Numbered from the stretch's first letter, positions 1 through 27,291 are shown. The stretch is 27,291 bases of DNA from a virus (IMGVR_UViG_3300031994_000051:64001-91291); one strand, 5' to 3'. Program-made: numbers and translations. The notes: generated by a model from the letters alone, not told the origin.

Positions 1-73
1 CCCAGATTTTATCGCGGAAAATTTCCCAGAATTTTTCCCAGAATTTTTCTCGAAAAATTTTTCTGGAATTTTC

Positions 74-104
74 TTGGATCGTATTGATATTTTTCGTATC
101 TTTG
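74..104 (+). promoter_or_regulatory. Bacteroidota sigma-A-type promoter
   Basis: TTG 74-76, 20-nt spacer, TATCTTTG 97-104 (TAnnTTTG -7 consensus); no ORF before the next promoter. Confidence 0.85.
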
Positions 105-167
105 CACCGTCAAACAACAAACAGAAAGGATATTTGGAAGATACGAAAAAAAAAAACAGAAAAAAGC

Positions 168-198
168 TTGACACGTGTCGATATTTTCCGTATCTTTG
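168..198 (+). promoter_or_regulatory. Bacteroidota sigma-A-type promoter
   Basis: TTG-N20-TATCTTTG upstream of ORF 246. Confidence 0.85.
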
Positions 199-245
199 CA
201 GTGTGATTCAAAAACAAAGTATTAACCTATAAAAAACTTACAACT

Positions 246-515
246 ATGACACGGAGAAAAAACTTACTGTCGACTGAGGACGAGATAATCGTCACGGACA
301 AGATCAACAACGAGATTTACCTTACTGGGAAATTCATGGACGGGGAAGCCGATCTGAAAGACGAGAACGGAAACCCAGTCAAGATGAAATACCCAAAGTA
401 TTCTGAACTTACTGGTGAGCAGATAGAGGAAATCGAGTATTTTTGCGATCGATCGCTCATTGAGTACCAACAGGTTGCAATGGTTTTCGGGGAAGTTTTC
501 CCGACATCTTGTTAA
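246..515 (+). CDS. hypothetical protein (89 aa)
   Basis: ATG after A-rich leader directly downstream of promoter. Confidence 0.85.
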   Translation: MTRRKNLLSTEDEIIVTDKINNEIYLTGKFMDGEADLKDENGNPVKMKYPKYSELTGEQIEEIEYFCDRSLIEYQQVAMVFGEVFPTSC

Positions 516-547
516 GTATAACAATCAAAAAAGGAAAGGACAATACA

Positions 548-1201
548 ATGACACATTTCCGTACATACTGCATAGGAGACTACGACGAGAACGACCTTTG
601 CGAGAAGTTCAGCGAGTTCACGACAGTGCCACCTTATGCCGATGGCAATGTCTGTGGAGAGGACATCATGCAATTTATTGATTTTTACACAAGTGGAAAA
701 AATACAAATTGTATTAATGGAGACATCAATGTTGCACATAAACTTGGGCCAAGATCCCGTAAACTGTTTGCAGAATGGACCGATGCGAAATCCAATGGCG
801 ACACCGATCGAATGAACGCAATCGTCAAGGAATCGATCGACACTGTGTTCAAGGAGCTTTACAAAGCGTTCGGCTATGACTGGAACCATAACAAATGGAA
901 ATTCAACGATCAGGGTGTGCTGGAGAAATGGAGTACACGCAATCCCAACACTGTCTTCGACTACTATCAGGAGATCGATCAGACAACTCTCGGCGATATG
1001 GTGGATCCAGATCTTCGCATAGCCGAATCATGCGGGTTCTTCAACGGCCCAGAGAACACTTACACGAAGTTTGACTGGGTTGGATGGTTCGGAATGTCGG
1101 AAAGGGAAGTTGACAACGAAACGGCGATCGACCTTGTAAGAAAGGCGATCGAGGGACTGCCCCCAGACACACCAGTCTACACATTCGACTGCCACATTTA
1201 A
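548..1201 (+). CDS. hypothetical phage protein (217 aa)
   Basis: Start moved to ATG 548 after A-rich leader; acidic protein; followed by terminator. Confidence 0.85.
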   Translation: MTHFRTYCIGDYDENDLCEKFSEFTTVPPYADGNVCGEDIMQFIDFYTSGKNTNCINGDINVAHKLGPRSRKLFAEWTDAKSNGDTDRMNAIVKESIDTVFKELYKAFGYDWNHNKWKFNDQGVLEKWSTRNPNTVFDYYQEIDQTTLGDMVDPDLRIAESCGFFNGPENTYTKFDWVGWFGMSEREVDNETAIDLVRKAIEGLPPDTPVYTFDCHI

Positions 1202-1240
1202 CACGACTGTTTTCCATAGTCTTTATATTGCTCATTTTTG

Positions 1241-1278
1241 CCCGATCGATCACATCCCGTGACCGATCGGGTTTTTTA
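1241..1278 (+). terminator. intrinsic terminator
   Basis: CCCGATCG...CGATCGGG stem followed by T7. Confidence 0.85.
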
Positions 1279-1331
1279 TGCGACATGCACGGAGATCGTT
1301 CTTCGGGAAGGAAGTCTTCGGCCCCCAGATC

Positions 1332-1346
1332 GATCCCAATGGGATC
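1332..1346. repeat. 15-bp palindrome, variant (GATCCCAATGGGATC)
   Basis: 7-bp arms, central A. Confidence 0.8.
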
Positions 1347-1434
1347 CCTTTGCCGTGGCATCTCCAAGGTCAGGTTATCCTCACCCATTCCCATCCTGAA
1401 GAACGGATGTTAAAGGGGACTCTGTCCTGAAAAG

Positions 1435-1449
1435 GATCCCACTGGGATC
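1435..1449. repeat. 15-bp palindrome GATCCCACTGGGATC
   Basis: Exact copy between terminator and promoter. Confidence 0.95.
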
Positions 1450-1512
1450 GATTCTGTGCGGATGACATCCGACGGGTTTCTGAACCAGAATAAAATTTTT
1501 TTCGGAAAACAC

Positions 1513-1543
1513 TTGACATGTATTGATATTTTCCGTATCTTTG
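1513..1543 (+). promoter_or_regulatory. Bacteroidota sigma-A-type promoter
   Basis: TTG-N20-TATCTTTG. Confidence 0.85.
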
Positions 1544-1588
1544 CACCGTCAATTCAAAAGAAGTACAAACATATAAGACAAAAGAACT

Positions 1589-1945
1589 ATGGAAGACAAT
1601 CTGACTAAAATTGTGCCATACGGTCCGATCGATTTACACGACAATTTCACGATCAACCACATCAAGATCGAAGTGAAATATTGGGATCACAGGATCAAGG
1701 TCGACATCACACCTATCATGATCAACGATATATCATACAGTGTCCATTACGACGGAAAGCAAGAGCATCAGGGGTTCTTCGTGAACGTACTGCAATGTTC
1801 GAGAAAGTCGAACAAAAAGATGGATCTGATCGCACGCGCACTCTGGCCTTACACCGATCGAATCGTCGAGCTTTTCGGACAAGGGAAGTTCGCAGAAATC
1901 ACCAACATTATCACAGCACTCGTTAAAGACTTAAACCTTAAATAA
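1589..1945 (+). CDS. hypothetical protein (118 aa)
   Basis: ORF directly downstream of promoter. Confidence 0.85.
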   Translation: MEDNLTKIVPYGPIDLHDNFTINHIKIEVKYWDHRIKVDITPIMINDISYSVHYDGKQEHQGFFVNVLQCSRKSNKKMDLIARALWPYTDRIVELFGQGKFAEITNIITALVKDLNLK

Positions 1946-1946
1946 A

Positions 1947-2213
1947 ATGTTAGACATAGAAAGAATAATGGAGAAGATTGGCCCGCAATTGACGATCGGA
2001 GACAAGCGTACCGTCATGATCGTCCTTGATGCAGTCAACGATCAGCTTTCGGAAACGCGCACAAATGAGGATATGTTCTGCATCTATAACAAAAGCGGCA
2101 TGAGAATGTTCCAGTACGGAACAGGATCGTGGTGCCACATGAACAGGACACTGAAGAAAGCCGAGTCCGACTATCCAGACGCAGGGTTCTATGTTGGAGA
2201 AATTGACGGCTAA
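1947..2213 (+). CDS. hypothetical protein (88 aa)
   Basis: Starts 1 nt after upstream stop; followed by terminator. Confidence 0.8.
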   Translation: MLDIERIMEKIGPQLTIGDKRTVMIVLDAVNDQLSETRTNEDMFCIYNKSGMRMFQYGTGSWCHMNRTLKKAESDYPDAGFYVGEIDG

Positions 2214-2240
2214 TCCAAGAAATCGGCAGAACTCCATTCA

Positions 2241-2280
2241 GCGATCGATCACGATAATGTGATCGATCGCTTTTCTTTTT
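2241..2280 (+). terminator. intrinsic terminator
   Basis: Perfect 12-bp stem GCGATCGATCAC/GTGATCGATCGC then TTTTCTTTTT. Confidence 0.9.
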
Positions 2281-2323
2281 GTCAAAAACCTGAGAAAACC
2301 AATGGCGTGCTGGCGTTGGTTAG

Positions 2324-2338
2324 GATCCCACTGGGATC
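2324..2338. repeat. 15-bp palindrome GATCCCACTGGGATC
   Basis: Exact copy. Confidence 0.95.
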
Positions 2339-2439
2339 GATCTGGACGGATCCGTCTTCAAAAGTATCCTTCTGATTTTCAGCAAATTAATTTCCAGAAA
2401 TTTTTTTGAAACTTTTTTGAAAAATTTTCGGAAAAAAGC

Positions 2440-2469
2440 TTGCCAGTTCGGGAATTTTTCGTATCTTTG
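2440..2469 (+). promoter_or_regulatory. Bacteroidota sigma-A-type promoter
   Basis: TTG-N19-TATCTTTG. Confidence 0.8.
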
Positions 2470-2515
2470 CATCGTCAAACAAAGAAAAAGACATTAACCA
2501 ATAAAAGAAAACACT

Positions 2516-3346
2516 ATGGAAAATTACAAGAAAGCATTGGAACAGGTAGGGATCGCCTATTTAGGAGGGTTGAAACACTCGGCAAAGATGATGAAGTCGT
2601 TCAAGAAGAAGGTTGCCACGTATTGCATATACCTTGCGCCTGCCGATCTTGCTGGACGGACTGCAAAGGGTACGCGGATCAACGTATGCCCGAAATCGCA
2701 GCACTGTAAAGCGTTGTGCCTGAACTCGTCTGGCCACAACAAGGCCGACATCCTCCACAGGGGGATCAAGCAATCGACCATCAACCAGTGCAGGATCAGG
2801 AAGACCCGCCTGTTCTACAACGATCGTAACCTGTTCATGGAGATCATGATACACGAGATCGAGAGGAGCCGCAAGTATGCGGAGAGTCACGGAATGGAGT
2901 TCTCGATCCGAATCAACGGAACGAGCGATCTGTCCCCAGAGCTGTTCCGCTACAACGGAAAGAACATACTGGATATGTACCCAGACGTTCAGTTCTACGA
3001 TTATACCAAGGTTTTCAGCCGTACAAAGCTGCAAGGTCTTTATCCAAACTATGACATAACATTCAGCTTCGACGGGTACAACTGGGAAGATTGTGAAACC
3101 TACCTGAACCGTGGCGGGAAGGTGGCGATCGTATTCGACTCGGAAACCATGCCCAAGACCTACAAGGGGTTCAAGGTGATCGACGCAAACGGATATGATA
3201 TGCGCTACATGGATCCTAAGGGTTGCATCATGGGTCTGGAGTTCCATCCGATAGCCATAGGCGGGAAGGTCTGTCACGCCAAGGAAATCGACGATCCCTT
3301 CATCGTGAAAACCGAAAACAACCCAGACGTGGATTTCGGCCTGTAA
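2516..3346 (+). CDS. phage Cys-cluster protein, GP88-like / radical-SAM-like (276 aa)
   Basis: Motifs YLAP, CPKSQHCKALCL (CX5CX3C), RINGTSD, FYDYTK resemble a widespread phage family; ORF certain, family tentative. Confidence 0.6.
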   Translation: MENYKKALEQVGIAYLGGLKHSAKMMKSFKKKVATYCIYLAPADLAGRTAKGTRINVCPKSQHCKALCLNSSGHNKADILHRGIKQSTINQCRIRKTRLFYNDRNLFMEIMIHEIERSRKYAESHGMEFSIRINGTSDLSPELFRYNGKNILDMYPDVQFYDYTKVFSRTKLQGLYPNYDITFSFDGYNWEDCETYLNRGGKVAIVFDSETMPKTYKGFKVIDANGYDMRYMDPKGCIMGLEFHPIAIGGKVCHAKEIDDPFIVKTENNPDVDFGL

Positions 3347-3368
3347 CGGGGGATAAAAACGGAAACGC

Positions 3369-3405
3369 GGGCGATCGGTCACATTGTGATCGGTCGCCCT
3401 TTTTG
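3369..3405 (+). terminator. intrinsic terminator
   Basis: 14-bp stem (with G-U pairs) GGGCGATCGGTCAC/GTGATCGGTCGCCC plus T tract. Confidence 0.85.
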
Positions 3406-3465
3406 TTTTTTCATGGAACTGGATCGATCGGACGAAGGAGATAGCGGATAGCGGAAAGCTGTATG

Positions 3466-3480
3466 GATCCCACTGGGATC
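3466..3480. repeat. 15-bp palindrome GATCCCACTGGGATC
   Basis: Exact copy; extends to 17 bp with flanking G/C. Confidence 0.95.
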
Positions 3481-3576
3481 CTGACTGGACGGATGGAACC
3501 TTTCTCTGGGTTTTCTTCCAGATTTTTCCCGAAAAAAGATCGAGAAAAATTCCAGAAAATTTTTTCAAGAATTTTC

Positions 3577-3607
3577 TTGGATCGTATTGATATTTTTCGT
3601 ATCTTTG
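3577..3607 (+). promoter_or_regulatory. Bacteroidota sigma-A-type promoter
   Basis: TTG-N20-TATCTTTG. Confidence 0.85.
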
Positions 3608-3661
3608 CATCGTCAAATAAAAACAGAGATATTAACCAATAAAAAGAAAGGAAAACAAACC

Positions 3662-3949
3662 ATGGGAAAAAAGATTATCAGAGCAAACGACGCCGACAAC
3701 TGCGAATCGATCATGATTACATTAACACGGGAAAAATACCCGATCGCCTTCAAAGCTAAGTTAGAAGAGCTTATGGAAGAAGGCGCGTTTGAAACGGAAG
3801 ACGAAGCGATCGACTGGATCGAGTCCAACCCGATCGAATTGGAAATCTATTATGAAAAGGGGTATGGCCTTTTCGCCGTGGAATCCGAAGCCGTGGAGAG
3901 CAACGGGACATATTCCCCCTACACAAAATCCGAGATTGTTTGCGATTAA
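3662..3949 (+). CDS. hypothetical acidic protein (95 aa)
   Basis: Start moved to ATG 3662 downstream of promoter. Confidence 0.85.
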   Translation: MGKKIIRANDADNCESIMITLTREKYPIAFKAKLEELMEEGAFETEDEAIDWIESNPIELEIYYEKGYGLFAVESEAVESNGTYSPYTKSEIVCD

Positions 3950-3964
3950 GAAAGGAGAAATGTC

Positions 3965-4360
3965 ATGGGTTACAGATTACATGTGGTAAAACGACAGGAA
4001 CGGTTCGGGGACATCGAGGCGTTCAACTGGAAAAACAACGAGTTCGCGGATCTTCTCACAACGATCGGCTGCGACATCTGCGGTGACGAGCCATACGATC
4101 GATTCGAGTGCCTGAAGTCCGAATTCAGGAAAGCGATCGGCATCGTCAAGCTCTATTCAGAGAAAGACAGTCTGACGGAAGAAGACCTTTCCGCGACAGG
4201 GATCGATCCAGGCTGTTTTGACATCGACGACATCAATGAAATTCTATCAAAAACAAAGGACGAACTTGGGTACACCCCGACAGAGCTTGTCAGGGTCATG
4301 GAGCAGTTCCTTTCGGAATCCGATCCAGATGGTGACTATATCATTTTCGTCGCTTGGTAA
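3965..4360 (+). CDS. hypothetical acidic protein (131 aa)
   Basis: Second ORF of the operon. Confidence 0.85.
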   Translation: MGYRLHVVKRQERFGDIEAFNWKNNEFADLLTTIGCDICGDEPYDRFECLKSEFRKAIGIVKLYSEKDSLTEEDLSATGIDPGCFDIDDINEILSKTKDELGYTPTELVRVMEQFLSESDPDGDYIIFVAW

Positions 4361-4392
4361 AAACGGAAAAAATAACTTAAAACAAGACAATC

Positions 4393-4731
4393 ATGGAAAC
4401 GCAAAGACCTTATACACATGAAGAGTACAAAATCGCCCTTAACGCCACGCACGACTTCCACACAAGATGCTACGAGACCGTAAGGGAATATCTCGAAGGC
4501 CATGGGATGATCAAGATCGATCCAGACCAGTACGATGAATGGAGATTCGATTTCCTTGAATACGATGAAACCATGACAGTGCATGAGATTTGTTTAGACG
4601 ATGACATATATTTTGTGTGCTACACATACAACGGAGATCAATATATTGTCGATTGGTGCCAGATCAACCACGACATGGTAATCACGGAGATGATCATGGA
4701 TCTCGTCTATAAACTTTCGGAAGAAGAATAA
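4393..4731 (+). CDS. hypothetical acidic protein (112 aa)
   Basis: Third ORF, followed by terminator. Confidence 0.85.
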   Translation: METQRPYTHEEYKIALNATHDFHTRCYETVREYLEGHGMIKIDPDQYDEWRFDFLEYDETMTVHEICLDDDIYFVCYTYNGDQYIVDWCQINHDMVITEMIMDLVYKLSEEE

Positions 4732-4760
4732 ACACTTTTGACACGCTTACTTTTCGCTTG

Positions 4761-4800
4761 GGGCGATCGATTACAATCTGGATCGATCGCCCTTCTTTTT
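4761..4800 (+). terminator. intrinsic terminator
   Basis: GGGCGATCGAT/ATCGATCGCCC stem plus TTCTTTTT. Confidence 0.85.
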
Positions 4801-4847
4801 TACCTTGATTTTGGAAATGAACTTCAGCGGGTATCCGCATGGCGATC

Positions 4848-4862
4848 GATCCCAGTGGGATC
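4848..4862. repeat. 15-bp palindrome GATCCCAGTGGGATC
   Basis: Exact copy, opposite orientation of the central base. Confidence 0.95.
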
Positions 4863-4929
4863 TTTTCCCAGAGATTATTTCCCAGAATTTTTCTTGGAAT
4901 TTTTCTTGAAATTTTTTTCGGGATTTTTC

Positions 4930-4960
4930 TTGGATCGTATTGATATTTTTCGTATCTTTG
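4930..4960 (+). promoter_or_regulatory. Bacteroidota sigma-A-type promoter
   Basis: TTG-N20-TATCTTTG. Confidence 0.85.
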
Positions 4961-5007
4961 CAGCGTCAAAACAAAACAGGAATATTAACCATTAAAAAGA
5001 AAAGACT

Positions 5008-5775
5008 ATGCCAAACTATGTTAGAGCAAGAATCACGGTCAGTGGTGACCAGAAGATGATCGATCAGCTTGTCGATCACGTCAAAACCACATTCACAGAA
5101 AACGGGAAGGAAACCGTAATCCCGTTCGATTTCAACAAGATTATCCCTATGCCAGAGTCTTTGGACATCATTGACAGCTCAGACGGGCATAACGGGATGA
5201 AATATCTCCTTCTGAACGGCAAGTCGAGCGTCGGGGTCACAGGGGATGATTTCGCGTTCCTTCAGGAAATGGACAAGATCAGGAAAACAGATCCGAAAAG
5301 GTTCGACGATATGATCGATCTTGGTCGAAAGTACCTGCATAATATCGCGGAACACGGATTTCCGACTTGGTACGGATGGAGAGCCAAGAACTGGGGGACA
5401 AAATGGAATGCGTGTGACACCCAGACGGACGGTAACGGTTGTTTCGAGTTCGACACGGCATGGGCTTTCCCTTTCCCAGTGATCGAGAAGCTTGCCGAAA
5501 TGTATCCAGACCTTGACATCGACTTCATATATGCCGACGAGGACTGCGGATGCAATACGGGGGAAGGGACATTCTCTGGTGGCGAGATCGTCGAAGAGGA
5601 ATACCCAGATCCATGCACTGAAAGCGCATACGAAATCTATGACGAGTGCTGGCAGAATGAGTTCTTCTACAAGGATCCAGACGGGGAATGGAGATGGCAC
5701 GACGACATCAAGGAAGACTCAGACGGCATAGAGGAAAGCACAGACCCGATCAGCGGTGTTCTCGAAACCGAATAG
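5008..5775 (+). CDS. YubB-like / DUF1281_C ferredoxin-like domain protein (255 aa)
   Basis: Characteristic motifs MPNYV, FDFNKIIPMP, WRAKNWGTKWNA, FDTAWAFP, IYADED. Confidence 0.8.
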   Translation: MPNYVRARITVSGDQKMIDQLVDHVKTTFTENGKETVIPFDFNKIIPMPESLDIIDSSDGHNGMKYLLLNGKSSVGVTGDDFAFLQEMDKIRKTDPKRFDDMIDLGRKYLHNIAEHGFPTWYGWRAKNWGTKWNACDTQTDGNGCFEFDTAWAFPFPVIEKLAEMYPDLDIDFIYADEDCGCNTGEGTFSGGEIVEEEYPDPCTESAYEIYDECWQNEFFYKDPDGEWRWHDDIKEDSDGIEESTDPISGVLETE

Positions 5776-5804
5776 CTGAACTGGCCTGACTGCCCAGCAA
5801 GGCA

Positions 5805-5850
5805 AAGGCGATCGATCCTTATAATGTGATCGATCGCCTTTTTTCTTTTT
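5805..5850 (+). terminator. intrinsic terminator
   Basis: 13-bp stem AAGGCGATCGATC/GATCGATCGCCTT plus T tract. Confidence 0.9.
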
Positions 5851-5897
5851 TGTTCATAAGACGCTTGCATGATGATATGATGCGGGGGCCTTCGATC

Positions 5898-5912
5898 GAT
5901 CCCACTGGGATC
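5898..5912. repeat. 15-bp palindrome GATCCCACTGGGATC
   Basis: Exact copy. Confidence 0.95.
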
Positions 5913-5990
5913 CTTTCCACTGGAAAACTTTTGGGTTTTATTCTGGAATTTCTTTCAATAAATATCAAAGAAATTTTTATGGATTTTTTC

Positions 5991-6021
5991 TTGGATGTTT
6001 CTCGGAAAATCCGTATCTTTG
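5991..6021 (+). promoter_or_regulatory. Bacteroidota sigma-A-type promoter
   Basis: TTG-N20-TATCTTTG. Confidence 0.8.
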
Positions 6022-6042
6022 CAAAATCAAAAAAGTTACATT

Positions 6043-6429
6043 ATGGGACAGACATATAGCGTGAGCATGAACGTAAGGTTCAGGGACGAGGAAAAGGCTA
6101 AGGAGGCCTTGCAGAGGAAAATAGGAATGGCAAAGGTTGAACACACAAATTACAACCTCGAGCATTTCAAGGAACTTGGAATAGGGACGGACACATTGCC
6201 CGATCTCATGGGGATATTCTTCGGGGGATGGAAAGGTGTCCTTAACTCAACACCAGCTGGATACCTGTATGCCGACTTCGATGCGAGCTATGGTTGGGAA
6301 AGTGTGATGATGGAGGCTTTCGAGGATATATCACCGTTCCTTGAGGATGGATCGTTCATCAAGATCTGGCCAGACTATGGATGCGACTACGGCATTGTCG
6401 AGAACGGCACTTGCGTTTGGAGGGAATGA
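6043..6429 (+). CDS. hypothetical protein (128 aa)
   Basis: Start moved to ATG 6043 downstream of promoter. Confidence 0.85.
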   Translation: MGQTYSVSMNVRFRDEEKAKEALQRKIGMAKVEHTNYNLEHFKELGIGTDTLPDLMGIFFGGWKGVLNSTPAGYLYADFDASYGWESVMMEAFEDISPFLEDGSFIKIWPDYGCDYGIVENGTCVWRE

Positions 6430-6470
6430 ACTTGGAATAACAGTTATTGTTTATTATATTTTTCTTTTTT

Positions 6471-6508
6471 CTGGGCTTCCACTTGTCTTAGGGGGAGTCC
6501 AGTTTTTG
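6471..6508 (+). terminator. probable intrinsic terminator
   Basis: CTGGGCTTCC...GGAGTCCAG stem with G-U pairs, then TTTTT. Confidence 0.65.
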
Positions 6509-6576
6509 TTTGGATCGATCGGAGGTCAGCCATATCGGTTCCCGTTACTGGACAGCGTATGGCTGGGTCCGTCATG

Positions 6577-6591
6577 GATCCCACTTGGATC
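6577..6591. repeat. 15-bp palindrome, variant (GATCCCACTTGGATC)
   Basis: One mismatch; same position upstream of promoter. Confidence 0.8.
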
Positions 6592-6660
6592 GATCGTGCT
6601 GGGCGTCCACACTTAATCATGGGAACTTATCCGACACAGGAAATTTTTCTTTGGTTTTTC

Positions 6661-6691
6661 TTGGATCGTATTGATATTTTTCGTATCTTTG
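6661..6691 (+). promoter_or_regulatory. Bacteroidota sigma-A-type promoter
   Basis: TTG-N20-TATCTTTG. Confidence 0.85.
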
Positions 6692-6744
6692 CACCGTCAA
6701 TTCAAAACAGATACACTAACAACCATTAAAAAAGGGAACAAGAC

Positions 6745-7692
6745 ATGGAAACAACAGAGAAGGTTTCAAGGAGAATCAAACGGATGTACGGTTCCGCTGC
6801 GCTTTATTACGTCAGAATGTACTATGCGGAACGCGAGATCGACATCCTGAAATGCGACAAGGGCAGCGACGAGCTTGCGGCTATAAGGATTGCCGTAAAG
6901 ACAGCCAACAAGATGACATACAAAAAAATACCAACCGATCAGGCTTCTCTGAGGGATTTCTTCGCCGACAGATATAAGGACGAGATGAGAAGGAAGTCGA
7001 TCGAGGATAAGGAGAGAAGGGAGTCCGAAGAGATCCTCAACTCGATCGAAGGTTTTCTTTCCATAGAGGATGGCGCGAACTCCTATGTCCCGAAAGGAAG
7101 ATACGGGAAGGAGAACCGTATCGAGGTCAGCGAGGAAAAGGATTACAACGGGTATTCCAGAAGTTGCAAGTTCACGATGATTCGTAGGCGGGTCATAATC
7201 ACAATCAAGAGGGGGTACACGCTCCACAATGTCGGCGGTCTTATGACATTCGTAAAGGGGGAGAAGATCGATCGTTCTGGAATGGGCTGTGAATGGGCTG
7301 TTCAGGGAAGATCATACTCCGATGTTGTTATGCACAAGGGCTATCTGGTGAAGGGGGAGCATATAGAGGCGAAAAGCCTTGCTGAGGCAAGACGCATCAA
7401 TTCAGAGCATCGGGGAAAGATTCTTGCCAAGTTGCTTGAAGACAAGTCGAAAAGGGAAAAGCTGGAAAGTTCAGCAAAGAAAGTGGCCGTCACCGTTAAT
7501 GACAGTCTGGACAGCGGGAACTGTATGTTCGGGACAATGGATTTCAAGGGCAAGGTAGAAAGGGTTCTCGGACACACGATCGATCATCTCTCTGGGGATC
7601 TTGTCTTGAAGTACGGGAAGGTTTTCCATGTCGAAAGTTACGCGGAAAAAGCCGTGAGGGAGGCCATAAGAAAATCAGGGAAAAATAAATGA
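6745..7692 (+). CDS. hypothetical basic phage protein (315 aa)
   Basis: Long ORF after promoter; C-terminal DSLDSGNCMFGT motif. Confidence 0.88.
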   Translation: METTEKVSRRIKRMYGSAALYYVRMYYAEREIDILKCDKGSDELAAIRIAVKTANKMTYKKIPTDQASLRDFFADRYKDEMRRKSIEDKERRESEEILNSIEGFLSIEDGANSYVPKGRYGKENRIEVSEEKDYNGYSRSCKFTMIRRRVIITIKRGYTLHNVGGLMTFVKGEKIDRSGMGCEWAVQGRSYSDVVMHKGYLVKGEHIEAKSLAEARRINSEHRGKILAKLLEDKSKREKLESSAKKVAVTVNDSLDSGNCMFGTMDFKGKVERVLGHTIDHLSGDLVLKYGKVFHVESYAEKAVREAIRKSGKNK

Positions 7693-7701
7693 AGATTTTT
7701 C

Positions 7702-7732
7702 TTGGATAATATCTGGAAAATTCGTATCTTTG
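7702..7732 (+). promoter_or_regulatory. Bacteroidota sigma-A-type promoter
   Basis: TTG-N20-TATCTTTG just after upstream stop. Confidence 0.8.
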
Positions 7733-7758
7733 CACCGTCAAAACAAACGAGAAAAAAA

Positions 7759-8022
7759 ATGGAAGAGAAAAACAGAATAACAGGAAGGTATTTAGAGACA
7801 GCGAAATGCAGGACAATCATCTCGATAGAGACGAAGGACTGCGTGGAGATCCGTGAGATCAACGACACGATAGATAGATCAGCCGATCAAGGATTGATTT
7901 CCGCTCGGATAACAGTCATTGACACAACAGCAGGACACAGAATCGCATGGTATTTCAAACATTTGGGATATGACGCAAAATACGATGCCGTGACAAAATA
8001 CCTGTCAATATCATGGGAATGA
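7759..8022 (+). CDS. hypothetical protein (87 aa)
   Basis: Start moved from TTG 7702 (the promoter -33 box) to ATG 7759. Confidence 0.8.
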   Translation: MEEKNRITGRYLETAKCRTIISIETKDCVEIREINDTIDRSADQGLISARITVIDTTAGHRIAWYFKHLGYDAKYDAVTKYLSISWE

Positions 8023-8047
8023 ATATAAACAGTAAAACGATAAAATC

Positions 8048-8485
8048 ATGGAAAAGAGAAAAGTTACATTAAAGAGAAAGGGTAAGGAAAACAACAGAAT
8101 CATCAGCACATTAGATGAACTGAAGGACCTTTTCGGAATATTCGTCGGGACAATCGTCTGTGGCAACTCCGACGGGGAACCATGCGGAACAGACGATGGA
8201 AAATCCACACTGCACACGATGGATTTCGACACACCCCAGTGGTACGGATCGATCGAGGTCTGTGGGCTGGAATGTGTCAAGATCGGATCGGAGATCGACA
8301 GTAACGCAAGGGTTTTCGTCAAGCAGAGGGGCAAAGACGGCCTGTGCGGAATCCTGATACCGTTGAAGGATATTCCGATCGAGACGATTTCCGAGCTTGC
8401 CGTCGATCTCTCAGAGACATTCGGATACGGGGACACCATCAACCTTGTGTTCTCCGACTGTGTCAGCGACATCACCCATATTTGA
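8048..8485 (+). CDS. hypothetical protein (145 aa)
   Basis: ORF with A-rich leader. Confidence 0.82.
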   Translation: MEKRKVTLKRKGKENNRIISTLDELKDLFGIFVGTIVCGNSDGEPCGTDDGKSTLHTMDFDTPQWYGSIEVCGLECVKIGSEIDSNARVFVKQRGKDGLCGILIPLKDIPIETISELAVDLSETFGYGDTINLVFSDCVSDITHI

Positions 8486-8512
8486 TAAAATTGTTTCCAT
8501 AGTTTTTGTTTT

Positions 8513-8548
8513 CCAGCCGATCCTGCCATTGGGTCGGCTGGTTTTTTG
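8513..8548 (+). terminator. intrinsic terminator
   Basis: CCAGCCGATCC/GGGTCGGCTGG stem plus T6. Confidence 0.85.
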
Positions 8549-8596
8549 TTTCCAGAAAACAAGTTCTGAACTTCAGCGGGTACCCGCAGGACGATC

Positions 8597-8611
8597 GATC
8601 CCACTGGGATC
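8597..8611. repeat. 15-bp palindrome GATCCCACTGGGATC
   Basis: Exact copy. Confidence 0.95.
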
Positions 8612-8745
8612 CTGTTACAGTGCGAAGATCGATTATTCTTGCCGTGAAATTTATAACAGTTACAAGAATTTTTACAAGAAAAAATATGTAAATTATTGTG
8701 GATTAAATTGTTGAAAATTTCATAGAAAATAAATGAAGATTTTTC

Positions 8746-8776
8746 TTGGATCGTATCGGTATTTTTCGTATCTTTG
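8746..8776 (+). promoter_or_regulatory. Bacteroidota sigma-A-type promoter
   Basis: TTG-N20-TATCTTTG. Confidence 0.85.
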
Positions 8777-8802
8777 CAGCGTAATTCAAAAACAGAACAG
8801 CC

Positions 8803-9084
8803 ATGGAAACGAATGAACGGAAAAAATTGAACAACAAGGTCGAGTTCACAGGATGCGGAAAGTCGATCGTAATGAGGATGTCAGATCCCGAATTGAGAAA
8901 ACTTCGCGTGTATTCGGAAAAGGACAATAGATCTGAAAAGGAAATGATGAATACAGGATACATAAGGAACTTTTCCCTGTACGCGCTTTTCGACTACGCG
9001 ATCAAATCCAGAAGCAAATGCGGACGGATACGCGAGAATTTCCCCTATCACGATTTTGAACTTATATATTGGACACTTCTATAA
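8803..9084 (+). CDS. hypothetical protein (93 aa)
   Basis: ORF directly after promoter. Confidence 0.8.
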   Translation: METNERKKLNNKVEFTGCGKSIVMRMSDPELRKLRVYSEKDNRSEKEMMNTGYIRNFSLYALFDYAIKSRSKCGRIRENFPYHDFELIYWTLL

Positions 9085-9094
9085 AAACAAAGCA

Positions 9095-9475: not shown

Positions 9476-9511
9476 AAATGTAATAACTAACCAAAAGAAA
9501 GGGAAAATGAA

Positions 9512-10000: not shown

Positions 10001-10042
10001 CAAGGGAATCTTTTGGTTTTTGTGTTTCATGTTTTTTGTTTG

Positions 10043-18763: not shown

Positions 18764-20008
18764 TCAAAGGTTCAGTTTGAACACTTTTGGTGATACAACG
18801 TCACCTCTATCCCGTAAGCACATTAGCTGTGCATCCGAGATTACATTCCCTTTTCTCATCATTCCTATGGAACCGTTTATGTCGGCGTTAAGAATCTTTC
18901 CTGTGGATGAAACGAACAATCCTCTCTTTGTCCTCTTTCCCATGTACTTTTCATGGTGTTTCATATCTTCCAGAACTATATGGTCAACCTTGCTTGTGTA
19001 TGATTCCTCGACCGTTTCAACAACCAAGTCCGTGTATTTCAGAGCCTTGTACTTGATCTGCTCAATCAACGTGTTGAAAGGGATCTGCACGAAGTTCTGG
19101 TTGTTCCTTCTTCCGATGTTCACTTCCTGTTTCCATCCTTTGTTATGGCCTATAATGATCTTCTCCACACCGTTCCTGACACAGAAATCAACCAGTTGTT
19201 TTGACGCACAATGCAGGTAATGGTTTACCTTTGCGTTTCTTTTCTTCGTCAATCTCTGAATCCTCTTGCTTGTGTGTTTGTTGTTGCATTTTTCGAGTTC
19301 AGACTTGTACTCCACGAGTCTCTTGTTATAGAACTGGTTCATGGACTTCAGTGGTCTACCGTTAACGACGTATGAAAAGGGTTTGTCGTTTGAAGTTATA
19401 GCACACAAGTTATTTACACCTAAATCAATTCCTATGCAAGAATTTGAGTCATAGTTGTTCCTTATTACTTCCCTGTCTTCATATATGATGTTTATCTTTA
19501 TTTTGTCATAGTATTTCTGTATTGTGACTTGTCTAACATCTTTCAACTTTATCTGTCTTGGTACGAATATCTTGTAGCCAGAACAAGGTATTGTGAAAGA
19601 GTTTGTTTCTGGATCCTTCTTTCTGAACCTGCTTGAATCGATGTATATGATGTTATATTCCTTTGTCTTGTAAAGATAGTTCGGCATCTTCGGCCTGCCA
19701 TTGAACTTGGAAGGATTTTGTTTATATGATTGTGTCGCCTTGATCCATGACAGCCAGTTCTTTGCAACCTGTCTTACGACATATTGCTTGATGTTTATGT
19801 CAAGCTTTGATTCGGCAACCTTGCTTTCTGTCTTGACCTTCTCCCAGAGCTGGTTGTATGAATAAGTCTTTATCTTCCCTTGTTCCTTTGTCTCGAAATA
19901 CGCCTGCCTCTGGAAGTACAGGGCCTGATCATATATGGAAAGCGAATCAGACATCATACCAAGAAGCCTGATGTCGTTCCTTACCACTATGTTCCAAGAC
20001 CTGAGCAT
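18764..20008 (-). CDS. tnpB: RNA-guided endonuclease TnpB (IS200/IS605/IS607 family), no TnpA in window (414 aa)
   Basis: RuvC-I GIDLGVNNL; IIIGHNKGWKQ at the RuvC-II position; VEESYTSK; RuvC-III NADINGS. Confidence 0.93.
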   Translation of the reverse strand: MLRSWNIVVRNDIRLLGMMSDSLSIYDQALYFQRQAYFETKEQGKIKTYSYNQLWEKVKTESKVAESKLDINIKQYVVRQVAKNWLSWIKATQSYKQNPSKFNGRPKMPNYLYKTKEYNIIYIDSSRFRKKDPETNSFTIPCSGYKIFVPRQIKLKDVRQVTIQKYYDKIKINIIYEDREVIRNNYDSNSCIGIDLGVNNLCAITSNDKPFSYVVNGRPLKSMNQFYNKRLVEYKSELEKCNNKHTSKRIQRLTKKRNAKVNHYLHCASKQLVDFCVRNGVEKIIIGHNKGWKQEVNIGRRNNQNFVQIPFNTLIEQIKYKALKYTDLVVETVEESYTSKVDHIVLEDMKHHEKYMGKRTKRGLFVSSTGKILNADINGSIGMMRKGNVISDAQLMCLRDRGDVVSPKVFKLNL

Positions 20009-24921: not shown

Positions 24922-24953
24922 CAAATATACGGAATATTTTTGTAAATCGACAA
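24922..24953 (-). promoter_or_regulatory. sigma-A-type promoter 4 nt from the SprT start codon
   Basis: TTG-N21-TATATTTG-CATC-ATG. Confidence 0.72.
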
Positions 24954-24982
24954 AAGTTTGCATTTTGTTCTATATTAGGTTG

Positions 24983-24997
24983 GATCTCACTGGGATC
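24983..24997. repeat. 15-bp palindrome, variant (GATCTCACTGGGATC)
   Basis: One mismatch; between terminator and promoter on the - arm. Confidence 0.8.
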
Positions 24998-25040
24998 GAT
25001 CTAGGTGATAACATCAGAGCAAGATCAGCATATGTCTGGA

Positions 25041-25080
25041 CAAAAAGAAAAAGCGATCGGTCAATGTTGATCGATCGCTT
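25041..25080 (-). terminator. intrinsic terminator
   Basis: AAGCGATCG...CGATCGCTT stem, TTTCTTTTT on - strand. Confidence 0.85.
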
Positions 25081-25105
25081 CATCGAAAGTAAGCATGTCA
25101 AAAGT

Positions 25106-25696
25106 TTATTTTATTCGTATCGCATGGAACGCATAGATAAATCCTTGGAACTCTGGCGGAAATTCACAGTTGTCGAAATATTCGTGCGTATCGATGATTT
25201 CCTTCCACTTTCCGATGTATTTTCCGTTTTTATATGGCCTGAAACCTCCTGTTTTCCCAGCGTTCTCTGGATGATGCTCTATAGGATACATCCAGATGAT
25301 GTAAGTCCTTGTTGGATGATCCACGAAACCTTTCAGATATTCGATCGCTTGATTTGGATCGTCGCATAATCCATATGGGTTTCCGATATAATTCAGGTTC
25401 CTGTTAGGAAATCCGTTTTTATCGTGCCCACCGTCATCTGAATAATAAGTACATTCGTCAACGCACCACCAGAAATGTTGTTTCAGATCCTTTGTCTGAT
25501 CGTATGCCCAAGGCTGGAAATTGTTCCATCCTATATAGACACCTGGTTTTGGATTATGTTTCAAAGGATCTTTCAACCATGGAATGTACGCATCTTCGAT
25601 GCTGAAGTTTTCCAATTCTTGATCTATGATAATTTCATCCCAGACGGATTCGATTTCCTTATAGAGTTCTGGGGATATTGTAAGTGTTCCTAACAT
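25106..25696 (-). CDS. hypothetical aromatic-rich phage protein (196 aa)
   Basis: Long ORF followed by terminator. Confidence 0.85.
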   Translation of the reverse strand: MLGTLTISPELYKEIESVWDEIIIDQELENFSIEDAYIPWLKDPLKHNPKPGVYIGWNNFQPWAYDQTKDLKQHFWWCVDECTYYSDDGGHDKNGFPNRNLNYIGNPYGLCDDPNQAIEYLKGFVDHPTRTYIIWMYPIEHHPENAGKTGGFRPYKNGKYIGKWKEIIDTHEYFDNCEFPPEFQGFIYAFHAIRIK

Positions 25697-25725
25697 TGTA
25701 TTACTTATTTTATGGATTAAACTTA

Positions 25726-26571
25726 TTATTTCACAACTCCAAGATAGATTTCGGACAGTCCATAAAGTTCTGCTTGTGTGATTGGCTCTGTTCTGTTTAT
25801 ATCAAATCCGTGCCATTGTGCTTTAGTGAGCCAATGGGGATCGGTATCAGGATAAATCACCCAATCTTCCTCACTATAGTCGAATGCCCATTTGGTTCCA
25901 TATTTTTGGATCATTCTTTTCCTTGCATCCGATTCGGTCTTGGCGACGATCCTGACATAGTTCTTTTTGTTCTTTTCGTCTCCGCAGCCGAAAGTGAAGT
26001 ACCAGTTCTTATACTCTTTTTCCTTCAAAGAAGATATTATTTGTTGAACACCATCTAAAACCTTTTCTTGGTTTTTCTTTGATTGTTTCCCGAAGAATTT
26101 TTCAGCGTGTTTTCTCATGAAAGTATATGTGATTGATCTCCAATCCAATGTAGAGAATTTTCCTCCAGTATATCTTGGAAGACCTTTTCCATATCGTGGC
26201 ATATTAAGTTCGATCTCATCATTCGAAAGCATCATCATCACGTTGAGAACACTAAAGACGATCGCTTCGTCTCTTGTATATTCGCATAGTCTTATATAAC
26301 GATTAACATCCTCTTCGAATCGAAGAGGTGAGCAAAGCCAACGACCGCATTTTCTGTCTTCCTCGTCAAGGTGTTGATGAATTTTATCAAGAGCGATCAA
26401 CATGTAATGGGAAATCTCGGAATCGCTTGGATGCTCAGAGATATAGTATTGGTCATCTAGTCTAATCAATCTGGCTACAAGATCCATGAAGTTTTTCTCT
26501 GTTGTAAGACCATACCATCCTTTAGACATAAGTACTACAGAGTTGAAAGGGAAATTCTTTATCTTTTTCAT
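25726..26571 (-). CDS. hypothetical protein (281 aa), probably two domains
   Basis: C-terminal WYFTFG...YVRIVA...ARKRMIQKYGTKWAFDY looks like a small phage domain. Confidence 0.85.
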   Translation of the reverse strand: MKKIKNFPFNSVVLMSKGWYGLTTEKNFMDLVARLIRLDDQYYISEHPSDSEISHYMLIALDKIHQHLDEEDRKCGRWLCSPLRFEEDVNRYIRLCEYTRDEAIVFSVLNVMMMLSNDEIELNMPRYGKGLPRYTGGKFSTLDWRSITYTFMRKHAEKFFGKQSKKNQEKVLDGVQQIISSLKEKEYKNWYFTFGCGDEKNKKNYVRIVAKTESDARKRMIQKYGTKWAFDYSEEDWVIYPDTDPHWLTKAQWHGFDINRTEPITQAELYGLSEIYLGVVK

Positions 26572-26601
26572 ATCAGGTTAGTTTATGTTTGTTTGATGGC
26601 G

Positions 26602-26631
26602 CAAAGATACGAAAAATATTTGAATTGACAA
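26602..26631 (-). promoter_or_regulatory. Bacteroidota sigma-A-type promoter
   Basis: TTG-N19-TATCTTTG on - strand. Confidence 0.82.
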
Positions 26632-26665
26632 GTGTTTTGCGAAAATTTTTCCTTATATACAAAAC

Positions 26666-26872
26666 TTATTCCATGGGATCCACAACCACAACGACTTTGT
26701 CAGGATTCGTTCCATCGATAACCCTGTTATGTACTTCATAAGAGACTTTTATTTCATTTTTGTCACCATAATGTAAAATTACACAGTCCCCCTTTTGTGG
26801 GATCAAACGCTTGTTCCAATTGGGCCATTGCTTTATGTAATTTCCATCTAAATCTATGAATTCGATTGTCAT
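26666..26872 (-). CDS. hypothetical protein (68 aa)
   Basis: ATGA overlap with nicotinamidase stop. Confidence 0.78.
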   Translation of the reverse strand: MTIEFIDLDGNYIKQWPNWNKRLIPQKGDCVILHYGDKNEIKVSYEVHNRVIDGTNPDKVVVVVDPME

Positions 26873-27291
26873 ATCAATTGTACATTTTTGATTGTTTCAC
26901 AATAATCAAAAAGTTTCTTATCGCTTTCATCTACAGCGGCACAGAAATCTGTTAATACGGATATTCTTACGTTTGGAAAAGTTTCATGTAAATCCTTTAC
27001 CGTTTCATAAACGCAATAGTCTGTTGCAATACCACATACATCTATCATTTCTATGTTGTTATCAACTATGAAACATTTTAATATTTTTCCAGCGATTTCG
27101 TTTTGAAACACGCTGAACTCTTCCTTGTCTGGTTCATTTCCCTTACATAATGCAAGTAAAGACATTCCACCAGAACGTAATGATATCAATAGAGATTCCA
27201 GATCTGGATAGACTTTACATCCTTGAGTTCCTTTCACGCAATGAGGTTCAAAAGGACCTCCAAATTCTTTGAATGAGCAATGTTTTTTTGG
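26869..27291 (-). CDS. pncA: nicotinamidase/pyrazinamidase (isochorismatase family), 5'-truncated by window edge
   Basis: Frame stays open to the window end: PKKHCSFKEFGGPFEPHCVKGTQG...KG..EEFSVF...VCGIATDYCV; catalytic Lys and Cys motifs and the metal-binding His region visible. Confidence 0.88.
   Translation of the reverse strand, partial: PKKHCSFKEFGGPFEPHCVKGTQGCKVYPDLESLLISLRSGGMSLLALCKGNEPDKEEFSVFQNEIAGKILKCFIVDNNIEMIDVCGIATDYCVYETVKDLHETFPNVRISVLTDFCAAVDESDKKLFDYCETIKNVQLI

Follow-up and report, generated by a model that had tools for sequence, protein, structure and literature searches.

A lineage-specific excess of GATC between G/C flanks in a giant phage of gut/rumen Bacteroidota, densest in an array of small-gene cassettes

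Why should a phage genome be crowded with a short palindrome of the kind that phages ordinarily deplete? The question is raised by a 27,291-bp stretch of DNA (the window) from a 91,291-bp contig, for which an earlier note had reported about 60 CGATCG in the first 16 kb, in coding and intergenic DNA, against a few expected, and had likened them to the cyanobacterial repeat HIP1. The count was accurate: bases 1 to 16000 hold 60 of the window's 76 copies, genes and spacers both carry sites, and base composition predicts about 4.4 for the whole window (and about 101 GATC, against the 344 found). The window also contains 52 copies of the octamer GATCGATC and no CCGG. In 100 dinucleotide-preserving shuffles of the window, CGATCG numbered 8.61 ± 2.84 (maximum, 15), and none of the shuffles reached 76. 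Over the whole contig, observed/expected ratios (O/E) were 2.86 for GATC (936 copies), 12.6 for CGATCG (166 copies; 1818 per Mb), 7.7 for GGATCC (101 copies) and ~102 for GATCGATC (120 copies; 1314 per Mb). Markov-corrected ranking, which the note had proposed as a check, placed CGATCG first among hexamers at orders 1 to 3, and GATCGATC was the top octamer. The excess was uneven, with 15 GATC per kb in a cassette array (O/E, 3.97), 8.7 in the last 11 kb (O/E, 2.6) and 6.6 in the conventional part (O/E, 1.96), where plain GATC had an O/E of only 1.15 in the order-1 Markov model. Placement was clustered (CV, 1.3 to 1.5), and GATC-free gaps exceeded the length given by random placement. Most short palindromes tested showed the ordinary phage depletion, and the GATC family was the exception: CCGG, CTTAAG and ACGCGT were absent from the contig, and CCWGG, CTAG, AGGCCT, TTCGAA, GATATC and TTTAAA were depleted.

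The over-represented word is GATC between G/C flanks (S-GATC-S), of which CGATCG, GGATCC, the mixed forms GGATCG/CGATCC and the tandem GATCGATC are all cases. Across the contig, S-GATC-S had an O/E of 8.5, GATC with a single S flank 2.3 and W-GATC-W 1.1 (order-1 Markov values, 4.7, 1.33 and 0.68 for two, one and no S flanks), and S-GATC-S reached 11.7 in the array and 7.6 in the minus-strand tail block. The 182 mixed copies are enriched along with CGATCG and GGATCC, a pattern that fits one GATC reader with a flank preference and not two six-base enzymes. Pairs of GATC were found at exactly 11 bp in 76 cases and at 4 bp in 120; triple repeats numbered at most 3, which excludes replication slippage. 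By our own arithmetic on the counts, GATCGATC was about sixfold commoner than the single-flank rule predicts. In this tandem, each GATC copy provides the flank for the other. The outer flanks favoured around CGATCG were T..A, and the HIP1 octamer, GCGATCGC, occurred once in the contig versus ~6.6 expected from 166 CGATCG. The one-step neighbours GATA, GACC and GATT were depleted.

The GATC excess is real and acts at the DNA level. Enrichment was 1.5- to 2.1-fold in each of the three reading frames and greater in non-coding than in coding DNA; spacers outside repeated modules held ~9 GATC per kb versus 3.8 expected. The earlier note had foreseen that the signal might disappear after codon- and amino-acid-aware correction. 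Under synonymous permutation, which preserves amino acids and codon usage gene by gene, S-GATC-S remained 2.3- to 2.9-fold in excess (z, 9.5 to 14), conserved genes included, compared to 1.2 to 1.4 for GATC with one S flank and 0.86 to 0.94 with none, and conventional genes held 31 CGATCG against 6.8 in the shuffles. The excess thus outlasts the correction, in all three frames, and this first objection falls. GC3 was 0.56 in the array versus 0.37, and ATC made up 56% of array Ile codons.

The excess is densest where small genes are organized as cassettes with their own promoters, at 43 to 79.8 kb of the contig (37 kb); the right-hand part of this array occupies 1..15800 of the window (plus strand), with 11 to 23 GATC per kb and 60 of the 76 CGATCG. 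Each small gene there has a CGTATCTTTGCA-box promoter, of the Bacteroidota TAnnTTTG type, and a terminator. The array has 19 copies of the promoter box, the tail has 6 and the conventional 43 kb has none, which parallels the GATC O/E of the three regions and suggests a link between the word and the promoter cassettes. In the promoter module at 74..106 (plus strand), a GGATCG box (TTGGATCGT) precedes the −7 box CGTATCTTTGCA by 21 nt; TTGGATCGT recurs at 3577, 4930, 6661, 8746, 10237, 11692 and 14926 (8 module copies) and, with no −7 box after it, at 25354. The array terminators form a single diverged family. On the plus strand, a hairpin with a CGATCGATC-family stem followed by a T run was read from the sequence at 1241..1271; the hairpin at 2240..2271 has 14 pairs and GATCGATC in both arms, and the same family includes those at 3369..3399 (CGATCGGTCAC arms), 4760..4793 and 5808..5837 (family D8; 85% identity to the copy at 2241). 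A terminator-like hairpin of 18 pairs, its stem carrying GATCGATC, lies at 13338..13380 (plus strand). Almost all cassettes have a 15-bp palindrome, GATCC-N5-GGATC, in the interval from terminator to promoter; its two GATC are spaced by 11 bp. The copy at 1435..1449 has a promoter downstream; the others of the 14 in the window start at 1332, 2324, 3466, 4848, 5898, 6577, 8597, 10135, 13432, 14802, 14850, 21609 and 24983. Of the 552 array GATC, the palindrome accounts for 135, hairpins for 39 and the promoter box for 10; these recurring modules together take up about one-third, and the remaining two-thirds are scattered. Genes carry many sites as well: a GP88-family gene (2516..3346, plus strand; Pfam E value, 1e-30) has 14 GATC (O/E, 4.5), against 4 in the same aligned codons of the orthologue (71% identity) from the sister phage, G001, and a 382-aa gene (13460..14608, minus strand) has 15 (O/E, 3.7) and 5 CGATCG. 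From 15801 to 27291 runs a minus-strand block of cassettes, again with the promoter box (6 copies) and with a GATC O/E of 2.6. The TnpB/IS605-type gene at 18764..20008 (minus strand), GATC poor (O/E, 1.4), contains the window's longest GATC-free gap, and L014, a relative with 92% identity, has the element elsewhere.

Relatives place the trait within one lineage. In G001 (220 kb; TerL 70% identical to that of this contig), GATC O/E was 1.18 and GGATCC O/E 1.5, and CGATCG was depleted; in the relatives L015, L016 and L056, GATC O/E was 0.12 to 0.55 (0.12 in L015). Orthologous codons contained 85 GATC and 18 CGATCG in our contig versus 35 and 0 in G001, which iterates different words in the equivalent role, e.g., GCAGGGTCAGC, 33 times. 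The S-GATC-S excess is a lineage-specific amplification of a weak feature in the sister phage's accessory region. CCGG was absent from all three related contigs. Over 8.25 kb of 92% identity, our contig and L014 each had 66 GATC, 50 of them shared; site conservation was 0.61 versus a median of 0.58 over all 4-mers. Within conserved genes, the number of sites stays level while individual ones are gained and lost at the usual pace. The carrier is a giant phage of gut/rumen Bacteroidota, and the note had also reckoned with an enrichment no greater than the host's. In 19 genomes of the candidate host family, however, median GATC O/E was 0.47 (range, 0.13 to 0.89); 201 genomes from the family to which a Prevotellaceae MAG belongs had 0 to 46 GATCGATC each, and no genome among 401 Bacteroidales had more than 10 CGATCGATCG. 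Since candidate-host genomes are far lower in GATC, the second objection fails too, as far as the sampled candidates can stand in for the host.

The methylation link suggested in the earlier note is plausible, as G001 encodes a Dam-family methyltransferase (TIGR00571, 237 bits versus a cutoff of 115). Our contig, a fragment, carries no methyltransferase, Vsr or MutH. Vsr and MutH were also lacking from three other related or Dam-sharing contigs, and cytosine methyltransferases from all four fragments (G000, the present contig; G001; G002; and G607); G001 has no C5 or N4/N6 (PF01555) methyltransferase. The DPPY and SAM motifs of the G001 Dam are invariant across 25 homologues; homologues with 54 to 81% identity occur on contigs of 93 to 315 kb, and the closest cellular ones are from Prevotellaceae/Bacteroidales. 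In G001, the dam gene precedes TerL by ~27 kb, and on our contig no gene precedes TerL; a Dam in this lineage is thus extrapolated, since the contig itself has no methyltransferase. Moreover, 80 Dam-encoding phage loci had a median GATC O/E of 0.87 (0.55 in L056, with a Dam 56% identical), so Dam alone gives no GATC excess. The ratio of S- to W-flank enrichment is 7 to 8 here, compared to a median of 1.0 and a maximum of 3.2 in 44 Dam-encoding loci, and the flank effect is absent from Dam-bearing G001; the flank rule is no general Dam signature. Flanks do matter elsewhere: C/G-flanked GATC are remethylated faster in Klebsiella pneumoniae in vivo (PMC9684165), and GATC with A-tract flanks is a poor substrate for Escherichia coli Dam, as PMC4417163 relates from Coffin and Reich (2008). 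A faint DpnI match proved to be a zinc-ribbon coincidence.

Known systems resemble this one in part. HIP1 is the highly iterated cyanobacterial palindrome GCGATCGC (300 to 2700 per Mb; O/E, 55 to 228) (Elhai 2015, PMC4390886). Like it, a GATC-centred short palindrome reaches HIP-like density here in genes and spacers, is specific to a lineage whose close relatives lack it and is suspected of a link to GATC/CGATCG methylation; TCGATCGA-type derivatives in some cyanobacteria correspond to the extension favoured here. However, the word is carried here by a phage whose promoters are of the Bacteroidota type, the excess centres on a single region, GCGATCGC is rare and the unit is S-GATC-S plus tandem GATCGATC, so the likeness drawn in the earlier note is superficial. 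As to methyltransferases, the sister phage has Dam and this fragment none and, unlike in the HIP1 setting, we know of no CGATCG methyltransferase here. Subcluster B3 mycobacteriophages have GATC in ~4-fold and GGATCC in >4-fold excess, sister lineages do not, and the authors give no explanation (PMC4841201). Both are lineage-limited GATC/GGATCC excesses contrary to usual palindrome avoidance (GATC, 2.86 in our contig and 3.97 in the array, and GGATCC, 7.7, versus 1.18 and 1.5 in G001). B3 hosts lack Dam, however, and the B3 excess is even along the genome (PMC4841201), whereas ours is regional, rises to twelve-fold where GATC is S-flanked, extends to CGATCG and GATCGATC and belongs to a phage family that encodes Dam. 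Uptake sequences of Neisseria and Haemophilus (DUS/USS) are likewise over-represented within genes in all frames and maintained by drive rather than by per-copy position, and their inverted-repeat pairs often serve as transcription terminators, but they are non-palindromic, have 9 to 12 bases and spread via transformation bias, a route that, to our knowledge, no lytic phage has. GATC clusters whose Dam methylation state is read include E. coli oriC (with SeqA), the pap and agn43 switches and phage P1 pac. They share with our array dense GATC, pairing at roughly a helical turn, a location in regulatory DNA that precedes promoters and a (here proposed) function resting on density and methylation state, not on one exact position; unlike our 37 kb, which includes coding DNA, they span a few hundred bases, and SeqA and MutH are Gammaproteobacteria proteins, of which MutH was searched for here and not found.

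The best reading, which we put forward tentatively, is a methylation-linked positive pressure on S-GATC-S density. The family's own Dam-type N6-adenine methyltransferase, its gene probably outside this 91-kb fragment as the sister phage's copy upstream of the terminase gene suggests, would maintain GATC methylation and make GATC a short palindrome that is safe within a GATC-avoiding host group. In this lineage, methylated S-GATC-S would also be positively favoured, with density and not exact positions counting, and may form a dense self-mark across the host-transcribed cassette array, whose operator-like 15-bp palindromes, terminator stems and promoter box appear to be built from the word. Its likeliest use would be as a methylation-state signal (fully methylated versus newly replicated) for a putative reader protein, as protection of the array, or both. 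The clustered placement of sites and the long gaps between them count against this reading, as do the contig's lack of a methyltransferase and the finding that Dam in general brings neither an excess nor the flank rule. That it amounts to a phage-borne HIP counterpart, a self-propagating or selected S-GATC-S mark whose density, sensed via its methylation state by a putative phage protein, switches or shields the 37-kb array of host-transcribed accessory cassettes, we consider doubtful; if true, the long-unexplained excess of methylation-site palindromes would become experimentally tractable in a small genome.

Formally, a non-adaptive drive could also build up the word, if mismatch repair or gene conversion, biased by methylation or by palindromes, turned near-cognate words into S-GATC-S; we regard this as possible but rather unlikely. 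Elhai proposed such a biased repair or conversion route for HIP1 (PMC4390886), where the mechanism is hypothetical as well. Its effect would be greatest in the recombining cassette array, where heteroduplex DNA would be most frequent, and the array is the densest region and has raised GC3. A constant GATC count with ordinary turnover, effects in every frame and more so in non-coding DNA, and GATCGATC density and O/E within the HIP1 range also fit. The neighbour depletion fits too but is also expected from selection and from Markov-model closure; MutH, Vsr and cytosine methyltransferase are missing from the four fragments, and sites recur at fixed spots within functional modules, namely the operator-like palindrome, the terminator stems and the promoter box, which argues for use and not only drift. 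Use of another kind, by a lineage-specific protein that binds S-GATC-S independently of methylation, would explain the 4- and 11-bp pairs that slippage cannot, the surplus of GATCGATC and the palindromes between terminator and promoter. Such a protein, a regulator, an insulator or a nucleoid-type coat of the array, would recognize single sites, tandems (GATCGATC) or helical-turn pairs (GATCC-N5-GGATC), with genic copies as low-affinity extensions. Among Dam phages the flank rule stands out, and G001, where other iterated words play the same role, lacks it; this fits a factor peculiar to the lineage. We nevertheless think it unlikely: no DNA-binding or reader candidate was found among array genes, which have almost no family matches, the coding sites of conserved genes do not keep their positions, and the choice of a word avoided by hosts and relatives is left unexplained.

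It is very improbable that no force acts on the word and that the excess is a passive by-product of release from avoidance, duplicated GATC-bearing intergenic modules and GC3-rich array codons. The third of array GATC within modules, the one terminator family, the ATC-rich Ile codons and the order-1 Markov O/E of 1.15 in the conventional part are consistent with it, but the permutation results for S-GATC-S and CGATCG largely refute it for coding DNA, spacers outside modules are enriched, and simple release would not leave W-flanked GATC unraised. Imitation of the host's oligonucleotide signature and assembly artefact are scarcely credible. Phages often drift toward host k-mer usage, but the Bacteroidales genomes sampled have few GATCGATC and CGATCGATCG and a low GATC O/E. 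An artefact has one point in its favour: DpnII/MboI Hi-C libraries have GATCGATC at their junctions, where a GATC cut is filled in and religated. However, collapsing GATCGATC to GATC made open frames no longer, 29 of the 45 genic GATCGATC copies are bordered on each side by 30 or more open codons, seven copies lie in codons aligned to G001 orthologues, and L014, which comes from another sample, carries the same GATC trait.

The excess of GATC in this phage is real, acts at the level of the DNA, is specific to the lineage, and depends on the bases that flank the site. The window holds 344 copies of GATC, 52 of GATCGATC, and 76 of CGATCG; the last number compares with 8.6 ± 2.8 in dinucleotide-preserving shuffles, and our count for the first 16 kb (60 CGATCG) agreed with the one made by eye in the earlier note. 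The window is positions 64001 to 91291 of an IMG/VR virus contig of 91,291 bp (G000). Over that whole contig, the observed/expected ratio (O/E) relative to base composition was about 102 for GATCGATC, compared with 12.6 for CGATCG, 7.7 for GGATCC, and 2.86 for GATC. When Markov models of orders 1 to 3 were applied, as had been proposed, CGATCG ranked first among over-represented hexamers, and GATCGATC was the top octamer.

The abundant word is not the HIP1 octamer to which the excess had been likened: GCGATCGC, which is abundant in cyanobacteria, was found only once in the contig. Instead, enrichment follows a flank rule. GATC with G or C on both sides (S-GATC-S) had an O/E relative to base composition of 8.5 in the contig and 11.7 in the cassette array described below, sites with one such flank had values of 2.3 and 2.9, and sites flanked by A or T on both sides (W-GATC-W) had values of 1.1 and 0.9; with an order-1 Markov expectation, the corresponding values for the contig were 4.7, 1.33, and 0.68. 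The nonpalindromic forms GGATCG/CGATCC (182 copies) were enriched together with CGATCG (166) and GGATCC (101), and a single GATC-reading agent that prefers G/C flanks therefore fits better than a combination of PvuI-like and BamHI-like specificities. In GATCGATC, two GATC copies each serve as the G/C flank of the partner, and its count exceeds the prediction of the flank rule by a further factor of about six. Replication slippage of (GATC)n was excluded as its source, since triple repeats were nearly absent (at most 3, versus 120 doubles). Another 76 pairs of GATC are spaced at exactly 11 bp, within the 15-bp palindrome GATCC-N5-GGATC.

Synonymous codons were permuted inside each gene, preserving both the protein and its codon usage, and the excess persisted under this codon- and amino-acid-aware correction rather than vanishing. 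Array genes contained 250 GATC versus 147 expected (z = 11.7) and 59 CGATCG versus 14 expected (z = 14.6), and genes of the conventional part of the contig contained 252 GATC versus 194 (z = 6.3) and 31 CGATCG versus 6.8 (z = 10.2). GATC was raised 1.5- to 2.1-fold in all three reading frames, and under the same permutation only S-flanked sites were in excess within genes (2.3- to 2.9-fold, versus 0.86 to 0.94 for W-flanked sites). The pressure is on the DNA itself and not on proteins or codons. It extends to nearly all genes of at least 150 aa (GATC O/E, 1.5 to 5), the exceptions being a Band_7 gene, genes at contig 40.9 to 43 kb, and a TnpB gene. Three GATC-poor islands (O/E, 0 to 0.6), at contig positions 29165-31249, 40885-42970, and 6200-6730 (L005 to L007), may be recent acquisitions; among them are the gene of a Band_7/SPFH protein of 694 aa and those immediately preceding the array.

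The contig is 57% complete according to CheckV, and its genes were predicted with a simple purpose-made caller. It begins with a gene for a T4-type large terminase and also carries ClpX-like, DnaK, and DnaJ genes. The first 43 kb are conventional and densely coding. From there to contig 79.8 kb (about 15.8 kb into the window), small genes form an array in which every one comes with its own Bacteroidota-type promoter (CGTATCTTTGCA), a terminator hairpin, and a spacer that contains a palindrome; the last 11 kb carries similar cassettes on the opposite strand. Of the promoter box, 19 copies lie in the array and 6 in the last 11 kb, and the conventional part has none. The noncoding gaps of the array are these promoter/terminator spacers, and an alternative genetic code was rejected as the reason for its low coding density (reading through TAG/TAA did not help, and TGA opens several frames simultaneously). 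GC3 was 0.56 in array genes versus 0.37 in conventional genes, and orthologues of array genes in the 220-kb sister phage (G001) had a GC3 of 0.44 versus an average of 0.34 for that phage, so cassette genes are under a separate codon regime in both phages.

As the earlier note had described, the excess occupies coding as well as spacer DNA: 237 of the 552 array GATC sites are scattered in genes, and the remainder lie in the 15-bp palindrome (135), hairpins (39), the promoter box TTGGATCG (10), and other spacer DNA (131, still about 9 per kb versus 3.8 expected). By this tally, repeated modules account for about a third of array GATC and for almost none elsewhere. The six strongest terminator-like hairpins of window 1-16000 all have GATC in the stem, mostly as GCGATCGATCAC-loop-GTGATCGATCGC. 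The excess is concentrated in the host-promoter cassettes and forms part of their regulatory modules. Even coverage, such as a repair-signal model might call for, was rejected: GATC spacing is clustered (coefficient of variation, 1.3 to 1.5), with GATC-free gaps exceeding those of random placement.

Among relatives, GATC O/E was 2.2 in L014 (92% nucleotide identity to the contig; 5 CGATCG in 8.5 kb), 1.8 in the 32-kb contig G002 (TerL 73% identical), 1.6 to 2.6 in the short contigs L009, L010, and L013, 0.12 in L015 (TerL 62%), and 0.35 in L016 (TerL 35%). In the sister phage (TerL 70%), GATC O/E was 1.18, the flank effect was absent, and CGATCG (0.24) and GGCC (0.09) were avoided. Across the aligned codons of 17 orthologue pairs, our contig had 85 GATC and 18 CGATCG versus 35 and 0 in the sister phage, and the sites arose at synonymous and conservative replacement positions alike. 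Where the contig and L014 align, each has 66 GATC sites, 50 common to both and 16 of its own; this conservation (0.61) is ordinary beside the 4-mer median of 0.58. Density is kept while positions are not, single sites turning over as the number holds. A weak form of the trait is present in an accessory region of the sister phage (185 to 199 kb), which has 7 to 9 GATC per kb and 10 of that genome's 14 copies of GATCGATC, several as GGATCGATCC; what floods our contig is therefore an older feature, amplified in this lineage specifically and kept in check in the sister phage where CGATCG is avoided. The sister phage also has iterated words of its own, a GCAGGGTCAGC-type word, present 33 times where about 0.1 would be expected, and GTAATGTC, which totals 112 copies over the two strands. 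Further relatives were also sought by array features (the words of the promoter and of the palindrome, plus one array protein), which yielded only unrelated contigs or none at all.

A phage genome would be expected to shed its restriction-site palindromes; our contig has thoroughly purged most of the other short palindromes tested. CCGG is absent from 343 kb of the contig, the sister phage, and G002 (about 430 expected), that is, from 91 kb (about 147 expected), 220 kb (about 249), and 32 kb, respectively. CCGG is mostly near or above expectation in the genomes sampled from the candidate host family, and its loss from the phages points either to a CCGG-cutting enzyme universal among the hosts or to one that the phages carry. 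The contig also avoids CCWGG, CTTAAG (0), ACGCGT (0), TTCGAA, GATATC, and TTTAAA, the last three having no copy in the array. The profile of the sister phage is unlike this one, and the difference is probably the fingerprint of different host restriction sets. Shielding of TCGA/ATCGAT sites by Dam overlap was rejected; 312 of 594 TCGA sites have no GATC overlapping them, and their frequency is close to expectation. With most other palindromes tested purged and one family multiplied up to 12-fold, something acts in favor of that word, rather than a counterforce merely being absent.

The excess does not reflect the level seen in candidate hosts: the phage is far from every such genome sampled. 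GATC O/E was 0.13 to 0.89 (median, 0.47) in 19 genomes of the family of a Prevotellaceae MAG (20 kb sampled from each), GATCGATC numbered 0 to 46 per genome in 201 genomes of that family versus 1.3 per kb in the phage, and CGATCGATCG occurred at most 10 times per genome in 401 Bacteroidales genomes. None of the genomes in these three sets had similar word usage, and imitation of the host was rejected on these three counts. That the family avoids GATC suggests frequent GATC-cutting restriction within it. DpnII/MboI Hi-C libraries also generate GATCGATC, as their junction word. A junction artefact was rejected: replacing GATCGATC by GATC made open frames no longer, 29 of the 45 copies within genes are flanked on both sides by 30 or more open codons, seven lie in codons aligned to sister-phage orthologues, and the trait recurs in L014, which comes from a separate sample.

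The methyltransferase and Vsr/repair genes that the earlier note had proposed seeking were not found on the 91-kb contig, which is a fragment: six-frame searches for MutH, Vsr, and methyltransferases of the D12, N4/N6, and C5 types were all negative, and a Pfam scan of 89 of the called genes of at least 100 aa detected no methyltransferase, restriction nuclease, or repair nuclease. In the sister phage, a gene for a Dam-family enzyme (TIGR00571, 237 bits) lies upstream of the terminase gene at a distance of about 27 kb, on the side missing from our contig. Homologues with 54 to 81% identity occur on contigs of 93 to 315 kb, with invariant SAM-binding and DPPY motifs. In the search for a Dam of our contig's own lineage, a single-protein scan of viral contigs returned the sister phage only, and among the matches listed when viral and metagenome contigs were scanned with an alignment, one was 56% identical and the others at most 44%. 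In L056, whose Dam is 56% identical to that of the sister phage, GATC O/E was 0.55. Dam is known to respond to flanking bases: C/G-flanked GATC is remethylated faster in Klebsiella pneumoniae in vivo (PMC9684165), and A-tract flanks make poor substrates for Escherichia coli Dam (PMC4417163, citing Coffin and Reich 2008). However, the median GATC O/E over 80 Dam-encoding phage loci was 0.87, high values belonged to phages of 57 to 63% G+C (1.2 to 1.9 after dinucleotide correction), and the S-flank/W-flank ratio in 44 Dam-encoding loci was about 1.0, with a maximum of 3.2, versus 7 to 8 in our contig. These values count against a simple Dam story.

Why some genomes accumulate methylation-site palindromes is an old open question, on which these results bear. 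Precedents are HIP1 of cyanobacteria (PMC4390886) and subcluster B3 mycobacteriophages, whose excess of GATC/GGATCC is unexplained (PMC4841201), and no explanation for such an excess was found in the literature searched. We tentatively favor selection for a methylation-linked mark or switch, to which we would give somewhat less than an even chance. For a Dam-bearing phage family, methylated GATC would be a safe palindrome, and in the lineage of our contig G/C-flanked GATC may have been positively favored for density. Methylation-biased repair, the HIP model, seems unlikely, and we are just as doubtful that a protein binding S-GATC-S independently of methylation is responsible. Passive causes, namely, relaxed avoidance plus repeated modules, would make the finding an ordinary one, but the coding-sequence tests argue against them, and we consider them very improbable. 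Concrete handles on the question are provided by the sharp flank rule, by the enrichment of sites in the promoter-cassette array, and by the contrast with the sister phage as well as with relatives and candidate hosts that avoid GATC.

The gene at contig 61939-62934 (L008:1939-2934) has the most GATC of any gene (19; O/E, 5.2). Its open frame as called runs through the upstream promoter, and translation probably begins at Met 70 of that frame, which would make the product a zinc-ribbon protein of about 262 aa; a faint DpnI-family match was dismissed as a zinc-ribbon coincidence. Family matches were scarce among cassette genes, being limited to GP88 (window 2516-3346; E = 1e-30), DUF1281_C, an Api92-like ferredoxin-like domain (5008-5775; E = 3e-16), SprT-like (24312-24953; E = 2e-9), and an isochorismatase-domain fragment (26869-27237; E = 5e-7). 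The TnpB/IS605-type gene (window 18764-20008, minus strand; OrfB_IS605, E = 7e-21, with a Cas12f-like TNB domain) offered no route to the host, as there was no close cellular copy and the best genome matches were at most 47% identical. Its counterpart in L014 is 92% identical and is flanked by other genes, indicating that the element has moved within this phage lineage. The minus strand of the window also encodes a 106-aa protein consisting of an RyR domain alone (15894-16214; Pfam E = 3e-40) and a tRNA-Gly (TCC) (21354-21425).
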